Assembly: GCA_965204385.1 (NCBI GenBank)
Contig: OZ241984.1
Location: 2,644,984 to 2,708,983 of the forward strand
Direction of reading: 5' to 3'
DNA: 64,000 nucleotides
DNA from: Dehalococcoidia bacterium
Lineage (GTDB): Bacteria > Chloroflexota > Dehalococcoidia > Lucifugimonadales > Lucifugimonadaceae
Within the stretch, counting starts at the first letter, position 1. Each line of letters opens with the position of its first letter. Below the pieces are notes generated by a model. The model saw only the letters and a program-made list of their open reading frames with translations, was not told the DNA's origin and searched no databases. Made by a program: the position numbers and the translations under genes. Shown piece by piece: positions 8,876-63,908 of the stretch.

Positions 8876-8968
8876 GGAGGGTTCGCATAGAGGCCTAGTG
8901 CGCCCGCCTGCTAAGTGGGTTGGGGGTGTTGAGCCCCCTCGCGGGTTCGAATCCCGCACCCTCCGCCA
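8876..8968 (+). tRNA. tRNA-Ser (anticodon GCU), class II with long variable arm, CCA encoded
   Basis: Hand fold. Acceptor GGAGGGT/ACCCTCC, anticodon stem CCCGC/GTGGG with loop CTGCTAA, variable arm GGGGGTGTTGAGCCCCC, T arm GCGGG-TTCGAAT-CCCGC, discriminator G plus CCA. Confidence 0.85.
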
Positions 8969-12703: not shown

Positions 12704-13088
12704 CGCAATCAATCCCCTTCATAAAAAGTGCCGGTCAAACGGTTGATAAAGGCAATTATGCGACAGGGAGCGTGTTGCCGACGAAGTTGTGCAGAAAAAC
12801 GAAAGGCCAATCGTAGCGGTTGAAAAAAATCTGAAGATTCTGTGGAATCGATCGAACCGACGATCCAATCTGATCGTCGAAATCCCTGGTGGTTCGGGTA
12901 GATCGTTGACGGGCGCTTGGGCAATGAGGAGAGTGCGCCTAACGGCGCGAGGTTCAGGTGATTCTCGGCGAGATTCCCGGATCGATCAGACATCTTGCGC
13001 GGCGCAGTTTTCCCTTGGTTTCAAATCGCAATCCTTTGTGAATGGTTAATCGATACGCGAGTCGCGGGAGTGAACTTTGCAGACTTCT

Positions 13089-51485: not shown

Positions 51486-53570
51486 TCATCGCAGCGACAT
51501 CACGAGATTCAGGTGTTCATCGATGGTGCAGTTTGCGTCGGGTCCGATGAAGACGGTCGACTCTCGCTCTTCGACGATTGCCGGGCCGTTAAGAGTCGAT
51601 CCGGGATTGAGGCTGTAGCGATCAAATACTGGGCAATCGACGAAACGGTTTTCGTCGGTGAGGTAAACCGGGCGTTCTCCCTTGATCGGTACCGATTCGG
51701 CGTTTGATCTTGCGGATTGGAATCGTATTTCGGGGCGTGGTGGTGGCTCGGATGCTGTCATTCGCCAAGTTATTGTCTCTACGGGAACTTCGTTCAGCAC
51801 GCGCCCGAACAGTGCTTCGTATGTGGTGTCGAAGGCGGTCGCGAGTTCATCTTGGGATGTTGGGCCTAGGTTGCCGTCGGGGACGGGAACGACAATCTCG
51901 AAACCTTGTCCGACGTACCTCATGTCCGCGCTGCGTTGGATTTCGATGTCTTCAGTTTTCACTCCAGCCGATTCGATGAGGTCGATGGCGGTCGCTTCCA
52001 TGGACTTGAAGATGTCGTTTACGTGGCCCCAGTCAACGTCGTCGAGCTGGCTGATGTAGCTCTGGACGGCGGAGTATGATTTTGGCGCGACCAGCATTCC
52101 CAACGATGACATGACGCCTGCTCCCAACGGGCAGATCACCTTGTTCACCCCGAGCAGTTTCGCTACTCCATAAACGTGTAGCGGACCCGCGCCGCCGAAC
52201 GCGACGAGTGCGCTGCCTCGGATGTCGAGCCCTTGCTCGGCGGCGTGCATTCGTGCGGCGGTGGCCATGTTTTCGTTGACTACTTCGTGGATGCCTCGCG
52301 CGGCTTGGGTCACGCTCATGCCCATCGGCGCGGCGAGTCGGGCATCGATGGCTGTCCGAGCGGCATCTGGATCTAAGGCCATCTCGCCACCTAGGAAGTA
52401 ATCAGGATTGAGTAGCCCCAGCACCAGATCTGCGTCGCTGACGGTCGGTTCTATTCCACCTAACCCGTAACACGCAGGTCCAGGATCGGCGCCTGCGCTC
52501 TGCGGTCCGACCTTCATCAGTCCCAAAGGGTCGATGTATGCGATGCTGCCGCCGCCGGCGCCGATTTCGATCATGTCGATCGCTGGGACTTTGAGCGTTA
52601 GGCCGCTGCCTTTCTTGAAGCGATGCTCGCGTGCGGCTTCAAATTCGTTTGTGCGCGACGGCGATCCGTCGGTGATAAGACATAGTTTGGCGGTCGTGCC
52701 ACCCATGTCGAATGACAGCAGGTCTCGGTGTCCGAGGGTTTCACCGTAGTAAGCGGCCGCCATTGCACCGGCTGCCGGACCGGATTCGATCAGGCGCACC
52801 GGGAAAGATCTTGCTGCTTCCAATGTGGTAATCCCGCCTTCAGAAAGCATCAGATAGATGATGCCTCCGAATCCGAGCGACCTCAATCCGTGTTCCATCT
52901 CAGCGAGGTGTCTTCGTAATGGCGGATCTACGTAGGCGTTGGCAACGGTGGTAGAGGTGCGTGGATATTCGCGCACCTCGGGTGCGATGTCGGATGACAG
53001 TGACACGGTGTAGTGGGGATGTCGCTTGCTTAGGTAGTCGCGGATTGCAAGTTCGTGGGACGGGTTTCTGTATGAGTGGAGGAGCGCGACGGCGATTGTT
53101 TCGACGCCGCTTTTCTCGAAGGTTGCCATGATCTGGCCGAGTGATTCAAGATCGAGCGGAACCAGAACTTCCCCGTCAAAGCTCATTCGCTCAGGTACCG
53201 GTCTCCTGAGGTGTCTCGGTACTAGAGGTTCGGCACGTCGAGCGGTGAGGTCGTACATGTCGTACCGCTGCTCGGTGCCAGTCTCTAGGACGTCTCGAAA
53301 CCCCTCGGTGGTGATGAGGCCAACCTTTACGCCCTTGCGTTCCAGCAAGAGATTGGCGACCAGCGTCGTGCCGTAGGTGACCAGTGAAATGTCGCTGACC
53401 TCGAATCCGGATCGTTCCGCGGTTTCGCGAGTGCCTCGGACTATCCCAACTGCGAGGTCGTCTTGGGAGGTCAGAGTCTTGCCGATGGAGAAGAAACCGG
53501 TGTCCGAGTCGTGGGCAACGAAGTCAGTAAACGTACCGCCGACGTCGACGCCGAGACGTACTTCCGACAT
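51486..53570 (-). CDS. hyuA: Hydantoinase/oxoprolinase family protein, A subunit (HyuA-like)
   Basis: 'LGVDVGGTFTDFV' N-terminus, 'SFDMGGTTAK', and length 694 aa. Confidence 0.9.
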   Translation of the reverse strand: MSEVRLGVDVGGTFTDFVAHDSDTGFFSIGKTLTSQDDLAVGIVRGTRETAERSGFEVSDISLVTYGTTLVANLLLERKGVKVGLITTEGFRDVLETGTEQRYDMYDLTARRAEPLVPRHLRRPVPERMSFDGEVLVPLDLESLGQIMATFEKSGVETIAVALLHSYRNPSHELAIRDYLSKRHPHYTVSLSSDIAPEVREYPRTSTTVANAYVDPPLRRHLAEMEHGLRSLGFGGIIYLMLSEGGITTLEAARSFPVRLIESGPAAGAMAAAYYGETLGHRDLLSFDMGGTTAKLCLITDGSPSRTNEFEAAREHRFKKGSGLTLKVPAIDMIEIGAGGGSIAYIDPLGLMKVGPQSAGADPGPACYGLGGIEPTVSDADLVLGLLNPDYFLGGEMALDPDAARTAIDARLAAPMGMSVTQAARGIHEVVNENMATAARMHAAEQGLDIRGSALVAFGGAGPLHVYGVAKLLGVNKVICPLGAGVMSSLGMLVAPKSYSAVQSYISQLDDVDWGHVNDIFKSMEATAIDLIESAGVKTEDIEIQRSADMRYVGQGFEIVVPVPDGNLGPTSQDELATAFDTTYEALFGRVLNEVPVETITWRMTASEPPPRPEIRFQSARSNAESVPIKGERPVYLTDENRFVDCPVFDRYSLNPGSTLNGPAIVEERESTVFIGPDANCTIDEHLNLVMSLR

Positions 53571-55199
53571 CTACTGTCTGCTCCGTCGGTTGAGGCCGTA
53601 GATTTCTTTGGCTGCGGTTTCCGAGATTAGTTCGTTGCGGAGATCCTCGCGCACCAATTCCAAGTCGCGTTCTTGGGGGATTCCGTATCCACCGCCTCCA
53701 GCGGTTACTAGATGAATGACCTCGCCTGGGCCGAGTGCTGTGCGCCCTTTGGCCGGTAGCGCGCGCCCGTTTTGTTCAGGTTCCGTCGCCATTCCGTGGG
53801 CTCCGGCGCGACCACCTGCTTGACCACCGCTCAGCCCCTCCGCCGGGAAATCCCACCGCTCGGACATCACCGACAACTCTGACCGCCTGGGCGACTTGAC
53901 TTCGATCACGATATCTTGCCCGCATCCTCCGCGATACCGTCCGGGGCCGCCGGAGTCGGCGAGTAGCTCTTTCTTCCAGAACACTAAGGGCGAGACGGAC
54001 TCGGAGACCTCGACAGAGCCCGGTATGGAGTTGGTGGGGAATGGGCAGCAGTGGATGCCATCTTCGGTGCTGCTGGCACCCATTCCGCCGCTAAGGAACT
54101 GCATAAGTGAGAACGGACGCATGGAACCATCCACGCCGGAAAAGAACGAGATGTATTGCGGTGTCGAACCAGAGTCGGCTAGCACGGTGTCCGGTAGTAC
54201 CGGTGCGAGTGCGCCGAATACCGCCGCCGTGATGCAATGACCTGTCAGGTGGCGCGACGACACGGCCCTTGGATAGGTGGCGTTGAGAATGCTACCTTCG
54301 GGTGCTTTGATGGTGAACGGACGGTAGGATCCCTCGTTGCGATACGTGAGCGAATCTAAGACGCATTTGAGCGGGTAGGTGGTGAATGCCCATGTGTAGG
54401 CGTATACGACATTCACGCCGCCTTGGTCGACCTGCTCCGAAGTTCCGGCAAAATCGACCTCCAACTCGTCGTTGTCGATTGTGATCGCGCAAGCAATCTG
54501 GATGGGATCGTCGAATCCGTCGAGTGAAATTGTGTGGGAATATGTTCCGTCGGGTAGATTTCGAACGGCACGTCGCATTACATCTTCGGCGCGCGACTGG
54601 ATGTTTTGGCTCAGCGATTCCAACAGGTTTACGCCGTACTCCTCCATGAAGCTGACGAGTTGGCGGCCCGCAATCTCGCAACCAGCCACCATCGCCATGA
54701 AATCGCCTATGACGGGTTCTGGGACACGCACGTTGTAGCGGATCAACTCGAAGAGGTCTTCGTTCGGTTCCCCGGCGGAGAAGAGCTTCATGGGCGGCAC
54801 GCCGAGTCCTTCTTCGAATACCGATCGGTTGTCGGCGGAAAAGATCGAACCACCAATGTCGGATGCGTGGGCGATGATGCCGGAGAAGGCTACGAGCTGA
54901 CCGTCCAGAAACACGGGTGTCGCCATTGAGAAGTCGGGGCGATGGCCCGTGCCCATCCACGGGTCGTTGGTTATGACTACGTCGCCCGGTTGCCACGTCT
55001 CATGCGGAAAGCGCTTGAGGAAGTGCTTCACTGTGCGCGACATGGTGCCGACGAATGACGGGATCGAGCCTCGGTTCTCCGCCAGCGTGTCACCGTTGCG
55101 GTCCATCAGGACGCATGCATAGTCGTTGCTCTCACGCACGACAGTCGAGAAAGAAGTGCGTACGAGTGTCGTCGCCGACTGATCTGCAATGGAGATCAA
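53571..55199 (-). CDS. hyuB: Hydantoinase B/oxoprolinase family protein (HyuB-like); true start probably upstream
   Basis: 'LISIADQSATTLVRTSFSTVVRESNDYACVLMD' and 'GGGGYG' near the C-terminus. The conserved family N-terminus 'DPVTLEILWNRL' is encoded in frame upstream of the first canonical start (TTG 55199). Confidence 0.85.
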   Translation of the reverse strand: MISIADQSATTLVRTSFSTVVRESNDYACVLMDRNGDTLAENRGSIPSFVGTMSRTVKHFLKRFPHETWQPGDVVITNDPWMGTGHRPDFSMATPVFLDGQLVAFSGIIAHASDIGGSIFSADNRSVFEEGLGVPPMKLFSAGEPNEDLFELIRYNVRVPEPVIGDFMAMVAGCEIAGRQLVSFMEEYGVNLLESLSQNIQSRAEDVMRRAVRNLPDGTYSHTISLDGFDDPIQIACAITIDNDELEVDFAGTSEQVDQGGVNVVYAYTWAFTTYPLKCVLDSLTYRNEGSYRPFTIKAPEGSILNATYPRAVSSRHLTGHCITAAVFGALAPVLPDTVLADSGSTPQYISFFSGVDGSMRPFSLMQFLSGGMGASSTEDGIHCCPFPTNSIPGSVEVSESVSPLVFWKKELLADSGGPGRYRGGCGQDIVIEVKSPRRSELSVMSERWDFPAEGLSGGQAGGRAGAHGMATEPEQNGRALPAKGRTALGPGEVIHLVTAGGGGYGIPQERDLELVREDLRNELISETAAKEIYGLNRRSRQ

Positions 55200-55489
55200 C
55201 CTGTTCCAAAGGATCTCCAGTGTTACTGGATCAAATTCTGTCTTGGTGTTCGTCGACGTGACCTCCGACCTCGGCTTTCGATTCGCGCTTGTCGAACGAT
55301 TAGGGATGCGACCATCTCGATGAATGACGCGCGAATTCTAGCACCTGTGAAGGCACCAATAATCGATGACTATCGTTACAGGACGTTCGCGTGATATTGA
55401 TTAGTTTGCGCTCGAATATATGTCATCCAGCGTCGATTTACTCTCATTGAACCAGAAAATAGTCGCTTCGGCCCGTGATAAACTGCGCG

Positions 55490-57970
55490 ATGCAAATGAA
55501 CCAGGTACTCGAAAGGATGAGCTGGCTGGTCACGGCGCGCCCGTGGGTCACGATCATCGTCCTCGTCATCGTCACCGTTGTCCTTGCCGCCGGAGCTAAT
55601 CTCCGTGCACCGCCGACGGAAGGTGCGAGTGTGGCGTTTTTGCCGCCAGGGCATGCGATTGCGAACGCGACGCGCGAGATTGACGAATTCTTCGGCGACT
55701 CTGGCGAGATCAGCATAGTAACCATCATTTTCCGCGGGGACGCGTTGACGCCAAGCGGTTTGACTCAGATGGACGGTCTCCTTGATGAGATCGTCGGGGA
55801 CTCTGGCGTAAGCGAGTTGCTGGTGCCGGTCGGTGCCGTGGTCGCGCCGTCGACCGTGATCGGCGCATTGGTGCAAGCCCAAGGCGGAGATGCGATAACT
55901 CAGGAAGTAATCGATTTCGCGCGGACGATTCCGGAGGTTCAAGGAGCGCTAGATGCGATGACCGGGACCGACACGGACGGCACGCAGGTGGCGATCGCAA
56001 ACATCCGTCTTACCGACACCGGTGACGAACGCATCCAGATAGCTGAGCGTCGGATTTACGAGTTGGCCGATGAGAACGAAGGTCCATTGAGCGTCAGCAG
56101 TTTGTCCTCTGTGATCGTCGAGGATGAATACACGGAGGCCACGGAGTCGGGTATGGGACCGCTGATCGGTCTGGCACTGGTGCTGATCGCTTTGCTGCTT
56201 CTGGTCTTCACGCGCACCTTCTCAGATATGTTGTTGACGCTGACCGGACTCATCTTTTCGATCGTCTGGATTGTCGGCGCAGAGGGTTGGCTAGGGCCAA
56301 ACGGTCTAAGCCTGATAGGACCACCGAGTTCGCTCACTGCGATGATTCCAGTGATCGTCATCAGCCTCACTGTGGATTATGCGATTCAAGCTATCTCGCA
56401 CTACCGTGAACAGCGAATTGAGGGTCTTGCGGTTGTTCCGGCGATACGCAAGGGGATAAGCATTGTCATGATCCCGTTGACTCTGGCCGCGGTGACGACG
56501 ATCGTAGCTTTCTTGGCTACGCTGTTCTCGCCGATCGGAGTGATTGCCGACTTCGGCGTTGTTGCAGGACTGGGCGTTGGGTTGAGTTTGATCGTTATGC
56601 TGACGCTGATACCGGCCGGCCGGGTGATTATTGATCGCCGGCGCGAGTCACGCGGCACATTGGCGCCTCCGCGGCCGATCTCGAACGCGTTACCAGGAAT
56701 CACACCGGTGGCGGAACTGATCGGGAGAGCGGTCACGCGATGGCCAGTGCCCTTCATCGCGGCGATTATTGCAGTGACGATCGGGCTAGGGTTCGCCGCA
56801 ACGGGACTGAAATCTGAATTCAACATCCGGGATATCCTCCCGCGCGGTGGGAGTGTGCTGGCGGATATGAACACCCTCGACGCATCAGTCGGCGGTTCAA
56901 CGGAGGTTGCCAGTGTGCTTGTGAAGGCAGAGGTGACGGAGATTCGGACGCTATTGAATCTTGAAGACCTTACGACCGCATTTGCGGACGAAAACCGCCG
57001 GCCGGCGGCCGTTGCGGGACCGATTCAGACGTCTTACTACGATTACCTTTACGACTGGATCGAAGACAGTGGGGAACCCGGAGACAGATACGATCCGGAA
57101 CTCGCTGCGATGTTCCAAGAAGCGTCCGAAGGAGTGCATCTTGATCCGAGTTTGATGCAGCGGATCTTGGATAGGCTCGGAGCAGAGGAACCCGAGCTTG
57201 TGCGCTTGCTGATAAACGATCCGGATGGTATCGACACAATGTTGCTCCAGTTTCCGGCGTACACCAACGATCCCGATGGGACGAAGGAGCTTCAAGAAGA
57301 TATCGAGGCGCTGTGGCAAGGCGATGACGCCGCAGTTACAGCGACTTCGGAAAGCATCCTCGGCGTGACGGTGCAGGGCCAGATCACCGACCGACAGACC
57401 GAGGCGATCAGCACAACTATCGCCATCGCGCTGGTTATCCTCTCAGTCTTCTTTTGGGTGACTTTGCGACAGCCTGCATTAGGCCTCGTCGCTGTTGGAC
57501 CCATCGTACTCGTCCTGATATGCGTGCTTGGAACGATGGCACTGCTGGGTATTCCATATTCATTGATCACCTCGATCATCACGGCATTGTCGATCGGTAT
57601 CGGTGTGGACTACACGATCCATGTGATCCATCGATATCGCGAGGAGTTCTCCCGTCTGCGTGACCCGGAGAAGGCGGCGATACGCACATTAAGCACCACA
57701 GGATCGGCGTTGTTGGGCTCTGCGCTGACGACGGCGCTCGGCTTTGGAGTGCTGATCGCCTCGCCGCTGCTTGCATCTCAACAGTTCGGCATCACAGCGA
57801 CGATAACAATCGTCTACTCGCTGATAGTGTCCGTTTTGGTAGTGCTTCCCGCGATGGTGGTCTGGGGCGCGTACCAGAACATGCGGTTACGGTCGATGGT
57901 TGAGCGGGAGTGGGCGGAACTCGACGAAGCGATCGAGGGCATCCACGAACGCTACGACCGAGAAGCGTAG
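55490..57970 (+). CDS. MMPL/RND-superfamily (HpnN-like) lipid transporter
   Basis: Two-fold 1+5 TM architecture with large loops. 'SVSSLSSVIVEDEY' and 'ALSIGIGVDYTIHVIHRYREE' are RND/MMPL TM-bundle motifs. ATG at 55490 (GTG 55475 is also possible). Confidence 0.85.
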   Translation: MQMNQVLERMSWLVTARPWVTIIVLVIVTVVLAAGANLRAPPTEGASVAFLPPGHAIANATREIDEFFGDSGEISIVTIIFRGDALTPSGLTQMDGLLDEIVGDSGVSELLVPVGAVVAPSTVIGALVQAQGGDAITQEVIDFARTIPEVQGALDAMTGTDTDGTQVAIANIRLTDTGDERIQIAERRIYELADENEGPLSVSSLSSVIVEDEYTEATESGMGPLIGLALVLIALLLLVFTRTFSDMLLTLTGLIFSIVWIVGAEGWLGPNGLSLIGPPSSLTAMIPVIVISLTVDYAIQAISHYREQRIEGLAVVPAIRKGISIVMIPLTLAAVTTIVAFLATLFSPIGVIADFGVVAGLGVGLSLIVMLTLIPAGRVIIDRRRESRGTLAPPRPISNALPGITPVAELIGRAVTRWPVPFIAAIIAVTIGLGFAATGLKSEFNIRDILPRGGSVLADMNTLDASVGGSTEVASVLVKAEVTEIRTLLNLEDLTTAFADENRRPAAVAGPIQTSYYDYLYDWIEDSGEPGDRYDPELAAMFQEASEGVHLDPSLMQRILDRLGAEEPELVRLLINDPDGIDTMLLQFPAYTNDPDGTKELQEDIEALWQGDDAAVTATSESILGVTVQGQITDRQTEAISTTIAIALVILSVFFWVTLRQPALGLVAVGPIVLVLICVLGTMALLGIPYSLITSIITALSIGIGVDYTIHVIHRYREEFSRLRDPEKAAIRTLSTTGSALLGSALTTALGFGVLIASPLLASQQFGITATITIVYSLIVSVLVVLPAMVVWGAYQNMRLRSMVEREWAELDEAIEGIHERYDREA

Positions 57971-58094
57971 CAGACGCTGGGCTTAAGATTTTCTCCCAAC
58001 TTTCGGGGAAATGTCTCGAGGATAAAGGGGGAGAAATGCCCGTAGTAAACCCGCCCTCTTGGGAATGGCGGTGGTTGTTTCAAAAGTTTCTCGC

Positions 58095-59129
58095 CTAAAG
58101 GGGTTTACGGGCTAGGAAACAGTAGAGCGGAGTGAAGATACCCGACTTGCCACCCGCGACGTAAGCGTCTGCGGTGCGATCCAGGAGTCGGACAACGTCT
58201 GCGGAGCCTTTGGGCAGAATCCGCACCACCTCGGCGAACTTTGTTCCAGCAACTGCCGCTTTACGGCCCCACGGTAGCCTGCGCAAGGCACTGCCTAACG
58301 TTCCGTGGCGACTTTCCATAGGTTGGTACCAAGGTGTTGACGGTCCTAGTTGGACGTCTCGATCTATCCCTTCCAAGACTCGGAATCCCACAGTTTCGAG
58401 CGCTTGGTTAACTTCCTGAAACGTCGCAATGTCGTTTAGCGCAATGCCACGCATCAGATCTTGCTTGATTTCTTGATGCCGGTCATCGCTCGGATCGAAC
58501 TCGTCCGTCAAACACATCTCCTGTCCCCAAAACAGGGCTCCGGGTTTCAGCACTCGGAAAATCTCGGCAAAGGCTCCTTGCTTGTCGGGCGCATGGCATG
58601 TCGACTCGATGGCGTAACCACGGTCGAATGTGTTGTCTTCGATGGTGCTCATATCCATAAAGCTGCACGGGTTGAGATCGACCATGTGGTCGATGTTGGC
58701 TTCAGCATTCAACTGTCTCGCCATCCCCAATTGGATGGCGTTGATGTTGATGCCGACGACTTTCACTCCCGCCTCGCGCACGACGCGACGCATCGGACCG
58801 CCAACGCCGCAACCAACGTCTATAACATTCATGCCCGGTTGCAGTTCTAGCTTTGAGATCATCAATCGTTGATGTCTGACTTTGGATTGCTTGAGGCTTT
58901 CATGAGGCGTCAAGGGCGCGAAGTGGAGCGATTCACCCCAGCCCCAGATCATGAATCCGCTACAAAGGTCGTAGTAGTCTTTAACGGTTTCGGCGTGGTC
59001 GTAGCCGTTCGCGCTGTCGGCTTCCGACTTCGCTCGATCTACCCAGCTGTCGAGATGTTGCACGCGGCGTGTGACATCGGAATCTCCGTACGCGTCTCTC
59101 AGCTCTTTCGATAGTTTGCCCAGCTGCAT
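58095..59129 (-). CDS. Sterol 24-C-methyltransferase (ERG6/SMT1) family SAM-dependent methyltransferase
   Basis: 'YYDLCSGFMIWGWGESLHFAP', 'VIDVGCGVGGP', 'FDRGYAIESTCHAP', 'PWYQP' and 'YVAGGKSGIFTPLYCFLARKP' match the four SMT signature regions and the ERG6 C-terminus (from memory). ATG at 59129; an alternative GTG lies at 59171. Confidence 0.85.
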   Translation of the reverse strand: MQLGKLSKELRDAYGDSDVTRRVQHLDSWVDRAKSEADSANGYDHAETVKDYYDLCSGFMIWGWGESLHFAPLTPHESLKQSKVRHQRLMISKLELQPGMNVIDVGCGVGGPMRRVVREAGVKVVGININAIQLGMARQLNAEANIDHMVDLNPCSFMDMSTIEDNTFDRGYAIESTCHAPDKQGAFAEIFRVLKPGALFWGQEMCLTDEFDPSDDRHQEIKQDLMRGIALNDIATFQEVNQALETVGFRVLEGIDRDVQLGPSTPWYQPMESRHGTLGSALRRLPWGRKAAVAGTKFAEVVRILPKGSADVVRLLDRTADAYVAGGKSGIFTPLYCFLARKPL

Positions 59130-59249
59130 CGCGTGCTTCTTCCGATCGTTAGTTGGTCTGCGATGAAGCACAGGTCAGAATTCCGAACCATCGATTCCCC
59201 TCCTTCATCGGGGTGCGGATCGGGTCCCGAGGTGATGTCATGTGGCGGG

Positions 59250-61277
59250 TCACGCAGGTATTTCGCGCCTCTGTTCGGCGACGTGGAATTTCAACTTCTT
59301 GCTCACAGAAAGCGACGGGAACGGGTCGATCTTAAGCTTGTAGTTCGCAGGCACTTCGAGCGTGAAATAGTGCGCGATCATTAACAGGTTGATGGCCAGA
59401 TGCAGTTCCATCTGCCTTGAACCGAGGCATGTGTGTGTCCCTAGCCCGAAGGGTGCGTAACCGGAACCGTGATGCTCGTTGCGCGGAGGCAGGTAACGGT
59501 CGATATCGAATTTCCAGGGATCGGGGAAGACATCCTCCATGTAATGGGCGGCGGCTTGAGCGATGTGTACCTGCGTGCCTTCCCGTAATTCGTGTCCTTC
59601 GACTGAACACGTATTCATCACAGTTCGCATCGACATCGGGACGATCGAATAAAGCCTAAAAGTCTCCAAGATGAAACGGATGGTCACGTCGATTGCTTCC
59701 GGGGTGAAGGCGTCGCGATCCGGATCGCCGTCGGCGAACAAGACATCTGCCTCACCGCGAATGCGTTCGTAAAGCTCTGGCTGCGATGCCATTGAATAAA
59801 CACAGAAGCCAAGGGCGTCGCCGAGGTACACGCTGGCGATTAGCGGCGCAGATAGCGCAAACCTGAGGTTAGATTCCGGTACAAACTGGGGATCGCTCGC
59901 ATGCAGACTCAACAGGTCATCAGCAAGGTCCCGAGGACATCCAGAGCGTTGGGCGGGTGTATGGCCGCTCTGGACTCGATTCAGCAGCACGTCGATGCTC
60001 TTCTTGCGGCGTTTCATACCCGGGGTGTTCAGCATGAACTTAGGCAATATTTTCACTACGTGAGTGCTGAGTGCTCGTGTTTTATATTCGACGAGGTCGT
60101 CGATGAGGTCCTGCGAATCAACGCTGATCATGATCGGAGAGTTTTGCGAGTTGATCATCAGTCGGCACATCCGGACTGCGGGCATAGAGTCGCCAACTGT
60201 CCAATCGGACATAAAGTTCCGGGCGTTGTTGTAGACGAGTTCCAGATGGCTTTCCAACCTCGAACGCGAGTAGGCGGAGTTCATGGACTTTCGGAAACGG
60301 AAGTGGTCGGCACCGTCCAGCGCGGGCAGTATTCCAGAAGCTCCATAGACCTTTTCGAAGTCTTCTAGGTAGTCTCGAGCTCGCAGATAGTTGCGTCCGT
60401 GCCTATGTGCCCAGTAATTTGTCTCAGCGCCGGCTAAAACGGTAATTGGTTGCTTCCGAAAAGGTGGACGAATCTGAAAGACTGGACCGTGCTTTTCTGC
60501 GAGTTGAGCAAAGAATGCATTCAAATTACCGTCGCGAAGATGACGATTGAACACCAATTCGCGGAGCGGTGCGACTGGGATCGGCCTGGACAGAGATGGA
60601 CGTCGAAGCGCCGGTCCGACAAGGGTCTCGGATACCGCTTTACTGATCGAACGCGCGATCAGATCCATCTGGCATATAAGCGCAATACGCTCTTCTGCCT
60701 CTTCATCGAGTTGGAATATGAAGCGGATAACATCGCAGGTATTGATAAGTGAGATGATGATGATGTCCCGTGGGTCGGGGATCTCGTCGTTGAATATCTC
60801 GTTAGCAATGCGGGCTTTGACGAATTGAAGCGCTGTGCCGTCTTGGGAACTGGTCATCATCTCTGAGTGCCACACTTTGCTAGACAGCGTCCAGTAATCT
60901 CCTTCGTGGTGATCGAGAATCTCTAAGTCGACCAATCGTTCCAGGACCGAATCGATAACGGCATCTGCGTGTGAAGCAAAACGCTCGATCCAATACTGGG
61001 TGTCGCGTTGAGTTGGTTCGCCCCCGATCGCCTTAAGGAACGGGTCAAGCACAGGATCGCCAGTTTCTGTTTCGTCGATAAGAAACAGAGATTCCATATC
61101 GGTATCGATGCGAGATTGGAGCGACAGTTCAGCGAGTACGGCTCCTACGACGGCGCAGTTCAAGTCCCAACCCGCAATTTGCCTAAAGTACCCGGTTTCC
61201 TCATTGAGAAGCATGAGGATGAGTTCCTGCGGCAGAGTGAGTTGGTGGGTTACCGTTTCGTCTATAGTCAGTGTCAT
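59250..61277 (-). CDS. GPP34 (GOLPH3/VPS74-like) domain fused to cytochrome P450
   Basis: The N-terminal ~225 aa 'LTLPQELILMLLNEETGYF......WDLNCAVVGAVLAELSLQSRID' are GPP34-like. The C-terminus has the P450 ExxR 'ETFR' and the haem loop 'FGLGTHTCLGSRQMELHL'. It is a single ORF. Confidence 0.85.
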   Translation of the reverse strand: MTLTIDETVTHQLTLPQELILMLLNEETGYFRQIAGWDLNCAVVGAVLAELSLQSRIDTDMESLFLIDETETGDPVLDPFLKAIGGEPTQRDTQYWIERFASHADAVIDSVLERLVDLEILDHHEGDYWTLSSKVWHSEMMTSSQDGTALQFVKARIANEIFNDEIPDPRDIIIISLINTCDVIRFIFQLDEEAEERIALICQMDLIARSISKAVSETLVGPALRRPSLSRPIPVAPLRELVFNRHLRDGNLNAFFAQLAEKHGPVFQIRPPFRKQPITVLAGAETNYWAHRHGRNYLRARDYLEDFEKVYGASGILPALDGADHFRFRKSMNSAYSRSRLESHLELVYNNARNFMSDWTVGDSMPAVRMCRLMINSQNSPIMISVDSQDLIDDLVEYKTRALSTHVVKILPKFMLNTPGMKRRKKSIDVLLNRVQSGHTPAQRSGCPRDLADDLLSLHASDPQFVPESNLRFALSAPLIASVYLGDALGFCVYSMASQPELYERIRGEADVLFADGDPDRDAFTPEAIDVTIRFILETFRLYSIVPMSMRTVMNTCSVEGHELREGTQVHIAQAAAHYMEDVFPDPWKFDIDRYLPPRNEHHGSGYAPFGLGTHTCLGSRQMELHLAINLLMIAHYFTLEVPANYKLKIDPFPSLSVSKKLKFHVAEQRREIPA

Positions 61278-61457
61278 CAGTTTCGCCGACGTTCCTGCGC
61301 CTGATAGACTTGGAACACATGGACTAGCCACTTTAAGGGATACTGTATCACACTGAATCAGAGGGTTTCTAGGTGCGATTCAGCGCAGGGCTAGAACGTT
61401 TGCAGAGTTCTGATCAGGTTGAGGTCACCCGGACTTCCGGCCGAAATTCACCAAACG

Positions 61458-62504
61458 ATGGTAACTCGACATAGCGTGCGAGCGGTCACTCAGACGCCTG
61501 CTCCGTTTCCCGAAGGCTGGTACTTCATCGCCAAGCGTGAAGCCATCGAAAAAGCTACCCTCGTTGCGAAAACATGGATGGGGGAAAGCGTCCTTGTTTG
61601 GTGTGACGGTAACGGGGCGATCTGCGTGTCGGAATCAGTCTGTCCCCACTTGGGATCCGATCTAGGCCCTGAAGCAGGAGGATGCGTACGCGGAGGCAGG
61701 ATAATATGTCCTTTTCACGGCTACGAATTCGATACAACTGGTCAGTGCGTAGCTACTCCATTCGCTCCTCCTCCAAAGACCGCCAAACTGCGGGTCTATG
61801 AGACGCAAGAGGTAGCGGGGATGGTCTTCGCATGGTGGGGGATAGATGGGAGACCGCCGCAATGGAGATTACCGTCGGATGATTTGGAACAATCAGACTG
61901 GACTGACTTAAAGGTCAATACCCTCCGTTTTCCCGGCCATCCACAGAGCACGACAGAGAATTCAGTGGACCTGGCGCACCTACGCTATGTCCACGGCTAC
62001 GACAACGTTGACGTGATCGTAGACGCCGACATCGACGGCCCGCTTTTGCAGACAGCATTCGACTTCAAAAGAACCCGCACTATCGCTAGGTGGGTAAACA
62101 TGACCTTTGAGGTCTCGGCTAGAACGCTGATCTACGGTCTGGGATACTCGTACGTCTCAATTAGGGAGCATTCGATTGGGATGGACATGAGACTCTGGGT
62201 GCTGGCTACGCCGGTCGACGGTACGCTTATGGACCTGTCACTCGCTTCGCAGATCCGGGAACTACGAAGCCCCAAACGATTGTTCGCGGGGCTAGGCTTC
62301 CTCCCAACGCGATGGCGTGCGCCGATCATGAACAAGTTCATGGCGGCTGAGCAACGCAACGATGTTTTGCAAGACGTTGTAATCTGGAGCCGCCAACAGC
62401 ACAAGACCCGTCCGCGTCTATGCCGTTCCGACGGTAAGATCATGCCATTCCGTTACTACTGCGCGCAGTTCTATCCAGAATCGAGCGAAAACGGTGCCGC
62501 CTGA
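61458..62504 (+). CDS. Rieske [2Fe-2S] non-haem-iron oxygenase, alpha-subunit-like
   Basis: 'CPHLGSDLGPEAGGCVRGGRIICPFHGYEF' (CxH-x17-CxxH). The C-terminal catalytic-domain-sized region contains 'VDLAHLRYVHGYDN' (candidate Fe ligands). Confidence 0.85.
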   Translation: MVTRHSVRAVTQTPAPFPEGWYFIAKREAIEKATLVAKTWMGESVLVWCDGNGAICVSESVCPHLGSDLGPEAGGCVRGGRIICPFHGYEFDTTGQCVATPFAPPPKTAKLRVYETQEVAGMVFAWWGIDGRPPQWRLPSDDLEQSDWTDLKVNTLRFPGHPQSTTENSVDLAHLRYVHGYDNVDVIVDADIDGPLLQTAFDFKRTRTIARWVNMTFEVSARTLIYGLGYSYVSIREHSIGMDMRLWVLATPVDGTLMDLSLASQIRELRSPKRLFAGLGFLPTRWRAPIMNKFMAAEQRNDVLQDVVIWSRQQHKTRPRLCRSDGKIMPFRYYCAQFYPESSENGAA

Positions 62505-62513
62505 TGACCCCAG

Positions 62514-63908
62514 CTAGGCTTTCCGAAAGCGCGATCCGTACAGGATGCTGCCGTAGTAGTTGAAAACTCTCTTGGCTTCCGGATCGTCGAAGGGATAATC
62601 TGCACCGATCTGTCTCGCGGCCGCTAGTCCGGTGATAAAGCAGGTTTCCTGGCTGTTAATCAGTGTGTGGGCGCCGCAGTGCCAAGTTTGTCGTCTCCCT
62701 TGTACGAAGCGGAAGAGATTGACGATCAATGCGACGTGACGCACATCGTGGATGATGTGTTGAAACCGATGCCGTTTGAGGATTTTCCGCTCGTCGATCG
62801 GATTGACGGGATTGTATGTAACCAGACAAGGCTTGTCTGATCTATTAACCCAAGGTTGCTGGTTGTGCATTATGTAGGTGACTTCATAGTTGTCCGGTTT
62901 CGGGCCGTACTGCTGGATGTGATTGCTACGGGTTTCGAGAGGTTGCGTTTCGTTGCTGGGAAGAACTGATGCATCGTGGTGGACGACCGCTTCATGATGC
63001 AGCGAGTCGTCGTAACGGATCGAAGAGAGTATGTAACGTTCCAGCCGTGTGGGATTGTCGAGGATCGCCAGCGCTTGATCCGCGTTGCACGCGAATATCA
63101 CGTCGTCGAACGCCTCTTGAACTCCCTCCGCATCCTCGAGCACCACCGACTCCGCATTGCGGTAGACCTTTCGGACTGGCCGGCTCAGATAGATTTTGTC
63201 GCGGAAGTTGGCCGTTAGGTTTTCGTAGATGCGGCGCGTACCTTGATCCCAAGTCCACATAGGTGTAGCCCGTTCGATATCGAAGAAATCTAGATACCGG
63301 GTGAATAGAGCGGCGGGCATGTCGAATACGTTGGTCGCCAGTACGAAGTTGACGAACATCGGCTTGAGGACTTGGTACTTGAACTCATCCGAGAAGCGTC
63401 CAAGTTTCAACAGGGTGCCCATACTGATGTAGTTGAAGGGGTTGAGGGCGTTGAGGAACTTAGACCGCGACCGGGTCAGCCAACCGATCCGGTACATGCG
63501 CTTCAACAACCGTTGGAACTTCGCAATCTCGGATTGCAAATCCTCCTTAATCTCGGAATCGTAGTCATGGGCATATATGCGCCCTCCGTACTCAACCGTG
63601 TAGCTAAATTTGGTGTCGAGTAGCTCGATACCGAATTGCTGCATCAAAAGAACGATGTGGTGATACACCGACGGTATGCAGGCGGTGACTGAGATGTCGA
63701 AAGGGATCGAGCTGCCATCATCCTGCGGCATGTCGACGGTAACAGCGTTGCCGCCAATCTGATCCTGAGCCTCGAAGATACGAAAGTCGAACCGATCAGA
63801 GTGATGGTGCAAGCCCCATGCAGCGCCTAAACCTGCAACACCTCCGCCGACTATGGCGATTCGTCTAGGCATCGGTCCTTTTCCAACCTGTTTCGTAGCG
63901 GATTTCAT
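62514..63908 (-). CDS. FAD/NAD(P)-binding oxidoreductase, COG2907 'amine-oxidase-like' family
   Basis: 'RIAIVGGGVAGLGAAWGL...FRIFEAQDQIGGNA' dinucleotide fold, and a C-terminal 'WHCGAHTLINSQETCFITGLAAARQIG'. Confidence 0.8.
   Translation of the reverse strand: MKSATKQVGKGPMPRRIAIVGGGVAGLGAAWGLHHHSDRFDFRIFEAQDQIGGNAVTVDMPQDDGSSIPFDISVTACIPSVYHHIVLLMQQFGIELLDTKFSYTVEYGGRIYAHDYDSEIKEDLQSEIAKFQRLLKRMYRIGWLTRSRSKFLNALNPFNYISMGTLLKLGRFSDEFKYQVLKPMFVNFVLATNVFDMPAALFTRYLDFFDIERATPMWTWDQGTRRIYENLTANFRDKIYLSRPVRKVYRNAESVVLEDAEGVQEAFDDVIFACNADQALAILDNPTRLERYILSSIRYDDSLHHEAVVHHDASVLPSNETQPLETRSNHIQQYGPKPDNYEVTYIMHNQQPWVNRSDKPCLVTYNPVNPIDERKILKRHRFQHIIHDVRHVALIVNLFRFVQGRRQTWHCGAHTLINSQETCFITGLAAARQIGADYPFDDPEAKRVFNYYGSILYGSRFRKA

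Follow-up and report, generated by a model that had tools for sequence, protein, structure and literature searches.

In which process do five adjacent genes of a Dehalococcoidia bacterium take part, which encode a transporter, a methyltransferase of the sterol C-24 methyltransferase (SMT) family, a GPP34-cytochrome P450 fusion, a Rieske oxygenase and a FAD enzyme? The genes lie in the window, by which we mean the whole stretch of 64,000 nucleotides analysed here. A first-pass annotation had read them as a cluster for methylation, oxidation and trafficking of a sterol-like lipid. On balance, sequence comparisons lead us to consider it probable that the locus represents a lipid-tailoring and transport module which is typical of sponge and coral symbionts and has been disseminated horizontally, and that this module acts on sterols.

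Gene arrangement and protein families

The MMPL/HAE3-type RND transporter gene (55475..57970, + strand; 831 aa, including an SSD-like transmembrane region) converges, across a gap of 124 bp, on the gene of the SMT-family SAM-dependent methyltransferase (58095..59129, - strand; ATG start, 344 aa). The fusion gene ('GPP34_L'; 59250..61331, - strand; 693 aa counted from the GTG at 61331) lies 120 bp upstream of the latter and is co-directional with it. Divergent from the fusion, at a distance of 87 bp, is the gene of a KshA-like Rieske non-heme-iron oxygenase (61419..62504, + strand; 361 aa), which converges within 9 bp with that of an amine-oxidase-fold FAD enzyme (AO; 62514..63908, - strand; 464 aa). 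The window translations place all five open reading frames as first annotated, with the same spacings and orientations, and contain every peptide quoted at that time, including CPHLG-x17-CPFHG. For the methyltransferase an alternative upstream start (GTG at 59171) is possible; the 344-aa ATG version equals the orthologues in length.

All five genes are intact, as seen from their translations, Pfam domains and motifs. Each of the anticipated domains (Sterol_MT_C, Methyltransf_11, GPP34, p450, Rieske, MMPL and Amino_oxidase) was matched in Pfam. Since the E-values of the five proteins range from 1e-16 to 1e-42 and the arrangement is kept in dozens of genomes, the module is far beyond chance. Divergent from the transporter gene are genes for the A and B subunits of a hydantoinase/oxoprolinase (51486..55199, - strand; Hydantoinase_A 289.6 bits, Hydantoinase_B 486.9 bits). 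Distant homologues (33-42% identity) lie beside the module in seven other loci (L049, L054, L064, L065, L072, L081 and L101); these genes are possibly accessory neighbours, of uncertain membership.

The fusion combines a GPP34 domain (aa 33-235, 60627..61235, - strand; 100.2 bits) and a P450 domain (aa 265-677, 59301..60539, - strand; 121.4 bits) in a single protein. Its true start is likely the ATG at 61277 (residue 19), the position at which orthologues most frequently begin (27/74). The heme ligand Cys635 is invariant in all 74 orthologues and E556 is present in 73; the I-helix G504-D505 pair is kept across orthologues, with a threonine next in only 28. The best full-domain relatives of the P450 in the PDB are CYP51 enzymes (54-58 bits), CYP21 and CYP17 being also near. 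Orthology to CYP51 was ruled out because identity to the bona fide CYP51 of a sterol cluster (locus L002) is 24%, over the C-terminal half. Neither the window translation nor the orthologue N-termini contain a hydrophobic or signal-like N-terminal segment. In microsomal P450s the membrane anchor is at the N-terminus; the cytoplasmic GPP34 domain occupies this position and, to judge from its position alone, might tether the P450 to the membrane or present a lipid to it.

The Rieske protein matches the Pfam families Rieske (59.6 bits) and KshA_C (86.8 bits), and its top PDB matches are KshA 3-ketosteroid 9-alpha-hydroxylases (84-89 bits). It shares the domain architecture of KshA, and the cluster ligands (CxH/CxxH) and iron ligands (DxxHxxxxH) are aligned, although the HMMER alignment, rich in mismatches, is confined to some 170 N-terminal residues and a short stretch near the C-terminus. 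Unlike KshA/KshB, it has no adjacent KshB-type reductase in the window and stands in an anabolic rather than catabolic context; no ferredoxin or reductase partner for either the P450 or the Rieske enzyme was found among the module genes. The suggestion that it might be the bacterial C-4 demethylase was rejected, given 32 bits against the SdmA model (cutoff 600) and 20% identity. The FAD enzyme matches Amino_oxidase (65.8 bits) and NAD_binding_8 (40.8 bits). In the PDB it comes closest to LkcE (89.9 bits over the full length) and to 2b9w (42.5 bits), a fatty-acid double-bond isomerase. Alignment of its orthologues reveals long invariant blocks.

The transporter matches MMPL (146.7 bits), Sterol-sensing (42.7) and Patched (41.9); SSD-like matches are common among RND proteins and not sterol-specific. 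With HpnN (hopanoid) and BstA (sterol) it has in common the RND superfamily, an MMPL/HAE3-like topology and linkage to polycyclic-lipid genes. However, its NCBIfam scores lie far under both equivalog cutoffs (HpnN 104 bits against 752, BstA 28 against 1400), which excludes orthology to either, and the HpnN-type pump first proposed gives way to a generic HAE3/MMPL protein (HAE3 239.7 bits, cutoff 351.9).

Recurrence and spread among symbionts

More than 1900 homologues of the SMT were found, the best 120 of them at 75-100% identity. Relatives at 73-89% identity occur in 552 species-representative genomes from at least 10 phyla, all metagenome-assembled, with many bins named for sponges or corals. 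Neighbours within 10 kb were surveyed at the best 80 of the 552 species-level SMT loci. GPP34-P450 adjoins the SMT in 75 of the 80 (median gap 58 bp), and a KshA-like Rieske gene is nearby in 67, an RND-superfamily pump in 63 and the FAD enzyme in 40; the identical five-gene set was found again in 13 other Chloroflexota genomes. The view that the five genes form a conserved module is thereby upheld. An independent collection, centred on GPP34-P450 (42 informative loci), yielded an RND pump in 29, a Rieske gene in 28, an SMT in 17 and AO in 12. As fewer than half of these loci have an SMT, it is not obligatory for the core. This recurrent core consists of GPP34-P450, the KshA-like Rieske enzyme and an RND pump, to which the SMT and the flavoenzyme are often added. 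An outgroup SMT (42% identity) is likewise paired with GPP34-P450, together with a TonB receptor.

The type of pump tracks lineage. Only in Chloroflexota do orthologues of the window transporter (63-84% identity) lie beside the SMT, at 20 of the 22 loci of that phylum, and the MMPL gene is the module's Chloroflexota-specific transport partner. An OEP-MFP-AcrB pump replaces it in Gemmatimonadota, Latescibacterota, Acidobacteriota and others, a swap that further separates the window pump from HpnN and BstA; the phyla with these tripartite pumps are diderm. Nitrospirales loci encode another MMPL protein and an outer-membrane beta-barrel protein.

The module appears to have been spread by gene transfer across many bacterial phyla of sponges and corals. 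Identity to the window is alike inside and outside Chloroflexota (SMT ~76%; AO ~75% overall, 73-78% inside and 69-79% elsewhere), and loci of different phyla have only module genes in common. The tree within the SMT clade mixes phyla, grouping Gemmatimonadota with Latescibacterota (98%), and Acidobacteria with Longimicrobiales, Bryobacterales and Rhodothermales (88%). The identifiable MAG and contig names of carriers are of sponge or coral origin. The window fusion, identical in architecture to GPP34_L of sponge symbionts and found in the same phyla, clearly belongs to that monophyletic, symbiont-exclusive family, for which Ferreira et al. (2025, PMC11706023) give a frequency of 80-96% among symbiont genomes in these phyla, no occurrence in 85 free-living genomes, and expression in situ.

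The methyltransferase and the substrate

The SMT matches Sterol_MT_C (62.1 bits, cutoff 21.7), CMAS (62.9) and Methyltransf_11 (58.7). In a tree with named SMTs these are its closest named relatives, and the window type forms a separate clade (100% bootstrap). The clade keeps the catalytic and SAM-binding residues (H90, E195, D125, G127, G129 and P133 in the alignment). It has fixed changes in sterol-binding Regions I and IV (Y81M, E82V/I, F89L, Y223Q and D249I), affecting positions that are conserved, according to PMC10070321, among all functional SMTs. The window SMT belongs to a distinct, ultra-conserved sub-clade whose sterol pocket is remodelled. Active bacterial SMTs (Brown et al. 2023; Brown & Welander 2025 preprint) are alike in family (Methyltransf_11 + Sterol_MT_C) and habitats; the window SMT differs in forming its own clade, in lacking F89 and T78 and in having M81, Q223 and I249.

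Nitrospirales carry the window-type SMT and another one, the SMT2-like '1 of 2' type (38-42% identity between the two). The latter is active and yields (epi)codisterol (PMC10070321). One orthologue (L037:10001-11035), to which the window SMT is 75% identical, matches 'Nitrospira sp., coral reef 2 of 2' of Brown et al. in gene order and in its 35.63% identity to ERG6. By deduction, this orthologue was without activity on both desmosterol and 24-methylenecholesterol, which leaves C-24 activity of the clade unproven. The initial description as a eukaryote-type sterol C-24 methyltransferase homologue is borne out for the family, by the Sterol_MT_C domain and the tree, but not for the reaction.

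A sterol substrate is supported because in Nitrospirales SdmB, SdmA, ERG24, CYP51, SQMO-OSC and SMT2 lie directly beside the module, and because the closest relatives of its oxygenases are of steroid type (KshA, CYP51). To this extent the reading as a sterol-lipid module is supported; its C-24 methylation is not supported, and its HpnN-type pump needs correction. As first noted, squalene epoxidase and oxidosqualene cyclase (OSC) genes are absent from the window; among the best 120 OSC relatives, none is on its 2,993,443-bp contig. A substrate made elsewhere or acquired from a host is a reasonable idea: ~21% of Ircinia symbiont MAGs, Dehalococcoidia included, have sterol core clusters (PMC9531527), as against the far higher frequency of GPP34-P450.

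In our preferred reading, a sterol from a separate ERG24-CYP51-OSC cluster, or taken up from host or community, would be processed at the cytoplasmic membrane. Hydroxylation or desaturation with O2 could fall to the P450 and the Rieske enzyme. Rather than the plain delta-24 bond of desmosterol or 24-methylenecholesterol, the SMT may methylate another olefin; its substrate would probably be an intermediate from its partner enzymes or from a canonical SMT. The flavoenzyme might then desaturate, isomerise or reduce the alkylated chain, by analogy with UfaM-UfaD-UfaO, and the RND pump would carry substrate or product across the envelope.

Would a non-sterol lipid serve as well? Squalene, a hopanoid, a carotenoid, a polyprenol or a membrane acyl chain could be methylated at an olefin by the SMT-like enzyme, desaturated by AO and oxygenated by the other two, as in UfaM/UfaD/UfaO. 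Amine-oxidase-fold and SMT-like enzymes can use acyclic isoprenoids or acyl chains, which counts against a sterol. Botryococcus SMT-like triterpene methyltransferases act on squalene. AO is a member of the amine-oxidase/phytoene-desaturase superfamily with LkcE and 2b9w as relatives, the CMAS score equals that of Sterol_MT_C, most module-bearing loci are without a sterol gene inside 10 kb, and the assayed orthologue is apparently inactive on two sterols. We nevertheless regard this as rather unlikely in view of the Sterol_MT_C domain and SMT-family placement, the KshA- and CYP51-like relatives, the complete sterol clusters directly beside the module in Nitrospirales and the restriction to animal-associated bacteria, which fits a eukaryote-type lipid.

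The fusion has also been proposed as a host-directed effector whose GPP34 domain binds host PI4P and blocks phagosome maturation (Ferreira et al. 2025), in which case its neighbours would be unrelated or loosely related cargo. Its exclusive, in several phyla near-universal and expressed presence in symbionts favours this, as do PI4P binding by eukaryotic GPP34 proteins (PMC11706023) and the giant eukaryotic-like repeat proteins encoded in the window genome. Against it, the strictly kept heme-binding and EXXR motifs imply a functional monooxygenase dependent on heme and on redox partners in the cytoplasm, the N-terminus is without a signal-peptide-like stretch, and hitch-hiking by chance is hard to credit when the order with metabolic enzymes and inner-membrane pumps recurs in at least 10 phyla. 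Similarity of the GPP34 domain to yeast Vps74 is marginal (E=0.25), and in this weak alignment V or A stands at the position of R97, a PI4P-binding arginine of Vps74. An effector role in place of lipid tailoring is improbable, yet the two ideas are compatible and not mutually exclusive.

It seems quite improbable that the SMT is a canonical C-24 methyltransferase finishing de novo 24-alkyl sterols while its partners supply ordinary missing steps, for instance C-22 or C-7 desaturation or side-chain reduction. Family membership agrees with this, and the Nitrospirales clusters are without a recognised desaturase, isomerase or side-chain reductase, which the module could supply. The known C-22 desaturases are P450s and are CYP51-derived, so the CYP51-related P450 would be compatible. 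Yet Nitrospirales already own the active '1 of 2' enzyme, the pocket substitutions are fixed, the orthologue is by deduction inactive on delta-24 substrates and the module is far commoner than OSC clusters in symbionts. Entry into steroid catabolism by uptake and by side-chain and ring oxidation (compare CYP125, KshA and KstD in actinobacterial cholesterol degradation) would bring together a KshA-like oxygenase, a P450, a flavoenzyme and a transporter, but is very improbable because a SAM-dependent C-methyltransferase is anabolic, KshB, Hsa, Fad and Mce genes are absent among the recurring neighbours, and the Nitrospirales module is embedded in a biosynthetic cluster.

Relation to described systems

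UfaM-UfaD-UfaO (Lemke et al. 2020, PMC7380195) offers a precedent in logic, with an olefin SAM methylase, a phytoene-desaturase-like NAD/FAD desaturase and an O2-dependent enzyme. It differs in its phospholipid acyl-chain substrate and its CFA-synthase-like methylase without Sterol_MT_C, and AO is likened to UfaD by this logic. The Ircinia ERG24-CYP51-LSS clusters (Kelly et al. 2022, PMC9531527) are alike in ecology, purifying selection and inter-phylum transfer, and Nitrospirales versions of such clusters are contiguous with the module. The window, however, is without the core genes of these and the SdmA/SdmB pathways, and the module is a separate unit, more widespread than the sterol core clusters.

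The first claim of novelty stands in part. Bacterial SMTs (2023, PMC10070321), transferred symbiont sterol clusters (2022, PMC9531527) and GPP34-P450 (2025, PMC11706023) were each published separately; a literature search found no paper linking the three, and the linkage is apparently undescribed. Neither PMC10070321 nor the 2025 preprint discusses the conserved partners of the SMT; the main text of PMC10070321 has 0 occurrences each of 'P450' and 'Rieske'. PMC11706023, with 0 occurrences each of 'sterol' and 'methyltransferase', interprets GPP34_L as a PI4P-binding anti-phagocytosis factor and examines flanking genes for the short form only. Here, by contrast, GPP34_L shares conserved modules with RND pumps, a KshA-like oxygenase, an SMT and a flavoenzyme, and is also found beside sterol clusters. 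With the substrate and chemistry that we infer, the module would tie a proposed 'symbiosis factor' to sterol chemistry.

The five-gene locus and its predicted products

The five open reading frames lie where the first-pass annotation had placed them: an MMPL pump (55475-57970, + strand), the sterol methyltransferase (SMT; 58095-59129, - strand), the GPP34-P450 fusion (59250-61331, - strand), the Rieske oxygenase (61419-62504, + strand) and a FAD enzyme (62514-63908, - strand). The successive gaps measure 124, 120, 87 and 9 bp. Every peptide motif quoted in that annotation was recovered, CPHLG-x17-CPFHG included, and each of its domain predictions was confirmed with Pfam at scores well over the curated cutoffs. 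The SMT carries Sterol_MT_C (PF08498) at residues 296-357 (62.1 bits against a cutoff of 21.7) together with CMAS and Methyltransf_11. GPP34 (100.2 bits) and p450 (121.4 bits) reside in a single polypeptide, and the Rieske protein combines Rieske (59.6 bits) and KshA_C (86.8 bits) domains. The pump matches MMPL (146.7 bits) as well as the Sterol-sensing and Patched families, and the FAD enzyme matches Amino_oxidase (65.8 bits), an assignment at superfamily level. Promoter and terminator scans gave signals no more frequent than chance, neither a riboswitch nor any other Rfam RNA lay close to the module, and no flanking repeats or att-like sites were present.

The closest solved relatives of the module enzymes act on steroids or lipids. 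The best PDB matches of the Rieske protein are KshA enzymes (84-89 bits), with which its metal ligands align, and it possesses the Rieske CxH...CxxH motif, the mononuclear-iron DxxHxxxxH motif and the KshA_C domain of this type. No KshB-type reductase or ferredoxin was found among the conserved neighbours or in the stretch of the window from 50 to 64 kb. The idea that the Rieske protein is a paralogue of SdmA, the oxygenase of bacterial sterol C-4 demethylation, was rejected (NCBIfam NF052579, 32.4 bits against a cutoff of 600; 20% identity to the SdmA of the compared locus L002). For the P450 domain, the best full-domain match is CYP51 (54-58 bits), followed by CYP21, CYP17 and CYP11A1. It is nevertheless not a CYP51 paralogue or orthologue, as it shares only 24% identity over 203 residues with the CYP51 of the L002 cluster. 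The flavoenzyme matches LkcE over its full length (90 bits) and 2b9w (42.5 bits), a fatty-acid double-bond isomerase. Lastly, the pump scores far below the NCBIfam cutoff for HpnN, the transporter type that the first-pass annotation had cited as an example (104.3 against 751.85). Membership in BstA (28.3 against 1400) and NF052374 (69.8 against 1100) was equally rejected, and the HAE3 subfamily model scored 239.7 against a cutoff of 351.9. These scores show the pump to be a generic HAE3/MMPL protein.

The fusion protein has the architecture of GPP34_L, a family of sponge symbionts, with GPP34 at the N-terminus, P450 at the C-terminus and the heme ligand Cys635 in 74 of 74 sequences. The EXXR glutamate is retained in 73 of the 74 orthologues. 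In the I-helix (residues 504-506, window 59817-59825) the tripeptide G-D-A replaces the usual acid-Thr pair. The G-D element is conserved in the orthologues and is followed by Thr in only 28 of 74, which may reflect atypical oxygen activation or substrate-assisted catalysis. The commonest start among orthologues corresponds to residue 19 of the window protein (ATG at 61277), and no signal-like N-terminus was detected. Microsomal P450s have a membrane anchor at the N-terminus. Since the GPP34 domain occupies this position, we infer a membrane-tethering or lipid-presenting role for it. Its alignment with Vps74 (E=0.25) is too weak for mapping the residues of the PI4P pocket of GOLPH3/Vps74.

Distribution and conservation of the gene neighbourhood

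The search for homologues of the window SMT scored more than 1900 proteins, the top 120 of them at 75-100% identity. A scan with one genome per species returned 552 relatives, of which the best 80 (73-89% identical) derive without exception from metagenome-assembled genomes (MAGs). They belong to Dehalococcoidia/Chloroflexota, Gemmatimonadota (including Ca. Palauibacter), Latescibacterota, Nitrospirales, Nitrospinota, Acidobacteriota, Binatia, Opitutales, Rhodothermales and Actinomycetota, the nearest being Dehalococcoidia MAGs at 89% and 84%. The bin names APA, IRC, SB066x, RHO, COS and Plut point to sponge and coral datasets; APA bins originate from Aplysina aerophoba and SB0661 bins from Ircinia ramosa (PMC11706023). 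In an independent search, a GPP34-P450 alignment run against 241 million JGI metagenome records yielded 87 relatives confined to a few contig series. Those that could be identified are all sponge metagenomes (LXNJ, Petrosia; LXNI, Sarcotragus; Ga0209021 and JGIcombinedJ30088, Aplysina), in agreement with the restriction of GPP34_L to sponge and coral symbionts. The fusion is reported to be expressed in situ and to occur in 80-96% of the genomes of symbiotic Dehalococcoidia, Gemmatimonadota, Latescibacterota, Nitrospirota and Rhodothermia, as against 0 of 85 free-living genomes (PMC11706023).

Synteny was assessed by tblastn with the window proteins against 80 species-level SMT loci, considering neighbours within 10 kb. 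Because many contigs are short, the resulting counts are lower bounds. Greedy clustering of open reading frames produced many GC-rich shadow frames, and conclusions were therefore taken from the tblastn-based tables. GPP34-P450 accompanies the SMT in 75/80 loci, and the two genes are separated by 58 bp in the median and by at most 300 bp in 59 loci. The KshA-like Rieske gene is present in 67/80, an RND-superfamily pump in 63/80 and the flavoenzyme in 40/80. Thirteen other Chloroflexota genomes carry exactly the same five genes as the window. We found no published account of a conserved linkage between SMT, GPP34-P450, KshA-like Rieske oxygenase, flavoenzyme and RND pump; the first-pass annotation had likewise been aware of none. 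The literature searched also contained no account of the exchange of transporters between lineages or of the separate SMT clade, and no paper in it names both GPP34 and a sterol methyltransferase.

The type of pump changes with the lineage. Among the 80 loci, the MMPL pump of the window occurs in 20 of 22 from Chloroflexota and in no other group. An OEP-MFP-AcrB tripartite pump takes its place in Gemmatimonadota (14/18) and Latescibacterota (10/10), and also in Acidobacteriota, Opitutales and Rhodothermales, while Nitrospirales and relatives carry a different 764-aa MMPL/SSD protein with an outer-membrane beta-barrel protein. As Chloroflexota are generally monoderm, the type of pump appears to suit the architecture of the cell envelope, an argument for counting transport among the functions of the module.

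When the search started from the GPP34-P450, 42 informative loci contained an RND pump in 29 cases, the Rieske gene in 28, the SMT in 17 and the flavoenzyme in 12; several harboured tandem GPP34-P450 copies. The recurrent core thus consists of GPP34-P450, Rieske oxygenase and RND pump, with SMT and flavoenzyme as frequent add-ons in several paralogous variants. Tandem duplicates are joined by a second type of GPP34-P450, which is only 41-46% identical to that of the window and often lies 1-8 kb from the SMT (L110, L118, L119, L126; L015, L018, L022, L025-27, L032, L050, L067, L084-85, L148-154), which indicates that several variants of the module coexist. The outgroup SMT P0246 (42% identical) likewise has a GPP34-P450 behind it, with a TonB-dependent receptor next in line; the pairing of SMT and GPP34-P450 is therefore older than the tight clade of the window. 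The receptor gene (L086:13509-16490, - strand) is flanked by DNA methyltransferase and HNH genes, a context that hints at outer-membrane uptake and a mobile setting.

Further details of the neighbourhood deserve mention. In the window, hydantoinase/oxoprolinase A and B genes (51486-55199, - strand) directly adjoin the module, and distant homologues (33-42% identity) do so at L049, L054, L064, L065, L072, L081 and L101, in several unrelated MAGs. They could represent an ATP-dependent accessory step or a coincidence. In the predicted 477-aa protein P0071, the last ~130 residues of a KshA-like Rieske oxygenase run in frame into a full SMT; whether read-through, fusion or gene-calling artefact, it mirrors the tight adjacency of the two genes. 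At L002 and L003, only a KshA_C fragment of ~97-99 aa is left upstream of the SMT.

A distinct methyltransferase clade

A cluster-representative search, exhaustive over 1.84 billion, gave 255 matches at E<=1e-30. Beyond the clade of the window SMT, full-length relatives fall off to 56%, 50% and then at most 43% identity. In a midpoint-rooted neighbour-joining tree built from SMT-like sequences alone, the nearest relatives are all SMT-like, among them the references rice SMT1-like, Cladosporium ERG6 and the Ca. Poriferisocius SMT. The window clade has 100% bootstrap support, a long stem and short internal branches, and stands apart from fungal ERG6 (98%) and from the Nitrospirales '1 of 2' clade (100%), named after the first of two SMT genes of 'Nitrospira sp., coral reef' (Brown et al. 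2023, PMC10070321). Within the clade the branching mixes phyla: Gemmatimonadota join Latescibacterota (98%), and Acidobacteria, Longimicrobiales, Bryobacterales and Rhodothermales form another group (88%). Furthermore, median identity to the window is equal inside and outside Chloroflexota, at ~76% for the SMT and ~75% for the flavoenzyme. Together, these patterns are those expected of strongly constrained genes that have been transferred between phyla.

Residue positions follow the numbering of yeast ERG6, the sequence of which was validated by its clustering with Cladosporium ERG6 and by reproducing a tabulated identity of 35.63%. The SAM motif DxGxGxxGP (Region II) and the catalytic pair are intact, with D125, G127, G129, P133, H90 and E195 in 80/80 clade members. 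The sterol-binding Region I deviates. In place of Y/F81-E-Y/F-GWGxxFHF and T78, the window SMT reads S78, M81, I82, W83 and L89 (GWGESLHF). Every functional SMT is reported to retain both GWGxxFHF and T78 (Brown & Welander 2025 preprint). Across the clade, Y81M and F89L are found in 80/80 members, Y223Q and D249I in 79/80 and Y83W in 64/80, and E82V/I, T78S/N and T219L are also fixed or nearly so. The PDB search returned no SMT structure. By the tree and these substitutions, the window SMT belongs to a distinct clade with a remodelled sterol pocket.

A Nitrospira locus connects this clade to published work. L037 (JAAXIB010000027.1, isolate Plut_88904) holds an orthologous locus on the contig that yielded one of the gene clusters of Brown et al. 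ERG6 aligned with L037:10001-11032 gives 124/348 identical residues (35.63%), exactly the published value for gene 2682229270 ('2 of 2', the orthologue of the window SMT). Moreover, the gene order reproduces the published numbering, with SMT '1 of 2' as 274, the flavoenzyme as 273, the Rieske oxygenase as 271 and SMT '2 of 2' as 270; gene 272 is the frame at the position of the outer-membrane beta-barrel cluster. It can be deduced indirectly that 'Nitrospira 2 of 2' showed no activity towards either desmosterol or 24-methylenecholesterol. Intact catalytic residues and strong conservation argue for an enzyme that is active all the same, on a substrate other than these, which its genomic partners plausibly produce.

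Substrate supply and possible function

The locus is probably a membrane-associated module for sterol tailoring and trafficking, the reading that we find best supported. A sterol substrate is backed by Nitrospirales MAGs, in which a complete sterol cluster (3-beta-HSD/SdmB, SdmA, ERG24, CYP51, a 1141-aa SQMO-OSC fusion, a second SMT) directly adjoins the module. The P450 and Rieske enzymes would carry out O2-dependent oxidation or desaturation, and the SMT would methylate a non-standard olefin. The flavoenzyme might desaturate, isomerise or reduce the alkylated chain, a step for which UfaM-UfaD-UfaO (PMC7380195) offers an analogous case, and the envelope-matched RND pump would move substrate or product.

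A non-sterol isoprenoid or an acyl chain as the substrate is a fairly unlikely alternative. The similarity of the flavoenzyme to 2b9w and the deduced inactivity of the SMT orthologue on two sterols fit such a molecule, and the steroid-related PDB matches of the Rieske and P450 proteins and the sterol clusters of Nitrospirales speak for a sterol. Quite improbable is that GPP34 serves as a host-directed effector with unrelated neighbours. GPP34_L was proposed to be a secreted PI4P-binding anti-phagocytosis protein (Ferreira et al. 2025, PMC11706023), in a paper which mentions neither sterols nor methyltransferases; on the other side stands the close and recurrent linkage of the fusion gene to the SMT, Rieske and pump genes.

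The window itself holds no sterol core gene within its 64 kb, as the first-pass annotation had noted for squalene epoxidase and oxidosqualene cyclase (OSC). Among the best 120 of more than 1300 OSC homologues, none lies on the 2,993,443-bp contig of the window, and those on SMT-bearing chromosomes are limited to Nitrospirales and a few other contigs. ERG24-CYP51-LSS clusters were reported in 115/537 Ircinia symbiont MAGs from 10 phyla including Dehalococcoidia, under purifying selection and with horizontal transfer (PMC9531527). Since GPP34-P450 is far more prevalent than these clusters, a comparison across two different datasets, many carriers are suggested to act on sterols made elsewhere. 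That a plain C-24 SMT here completes de novo sterol synthesis seems very improbable. Steroid catabolism is hardly credible despite the KshA-like protein, as genes for catabolism do not recur at the loci and methylation by an SMT is an anabolic reaction.

The SQMO-OSC fusion itself (L002:4597-8022) has relatives P0121-P0240 at 77-99% identity among the best 120 matches, with source names from Nitrospira, Acidimicrobiia, Rhodospirillales and Alphaproteobacteria MAGs. This core sterol gene has thus also spread across symbiont phyla.

A more far-reaching version of the tailoring model can be formulated, which in so specific a form is rather improbable. The module would be near-universal in symbionts of high-microbial-abundance sponges and remodel sterols derived from the host or the community. 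The divergent SMT would methylate a non-canonical olefin of the side chain, such as delta-25(27) or delta-24(28), leading to C-26/27/28 alkylation, after the P450, Rieske and flavoenzyme steps, and the GPP34-P450 'symbiosis factor' would be a sterol-modifying enzyme. If so, the 'unconventional' sponge sterols would have a bacterial source, and this would extend to precursors of the 26-methylstigmastane-type biomarkers with which early animals are dated.

Functional bacterial SMTs (2023), the horizontally acquired sterol clusters of sponge symbionts (2022) and GPP34-P450, a symbiont-exclusive 'eukaryotic-like' protein (2025), have been known separately. Our analysis suggests that these three literatures meet in one conserved, horizontally spread module. 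This would give GPP34-P450 a concrete and testable biochemical function, the oxidation of sterols or lipids at the membrane, and an SMT sub-clade is delimited which is apparently inactive on standard substrates and whose true substrate probably comes from its genomic partners. Whether the enzymes of sponge-specific sterol side-chain alkylation reside in the sponge, in bacteria or in both is an open question (PMC12541326), which underlies the use of C30/C31 steranes as evidence of the earliest animals. The module offers a defined set of four enzymes and a pump for addressing it.

Other parts of the window may also relate to symbiosis. Two giant open reading frames (13077-21404, + strand, 2775 aa; 29501-38146, - strand, 2881 aa) contain fn3, Calx-beta, Big_2 and cadherin-like domains, the second within a 30-38 kb stretch of 66-70% GC compared with ~57% elsewhere in the window. 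By their domains they look like eukaryotic-like adhesin-type proteins, and such eukaryotic-like proteins are reported to be enriched in sponge symbionts (PMC11706023). The sole tRNA of the window, tRNA-Ser GCT (8876-8968, + strand), lies ~1.1 kb from an 883-aa open reading frame with a phage-integrase domain (10061-12712, - strand) downstream of it. The two form a classic genomic-island signature, which possibly bounds the region of the giant repeat-protein genes.
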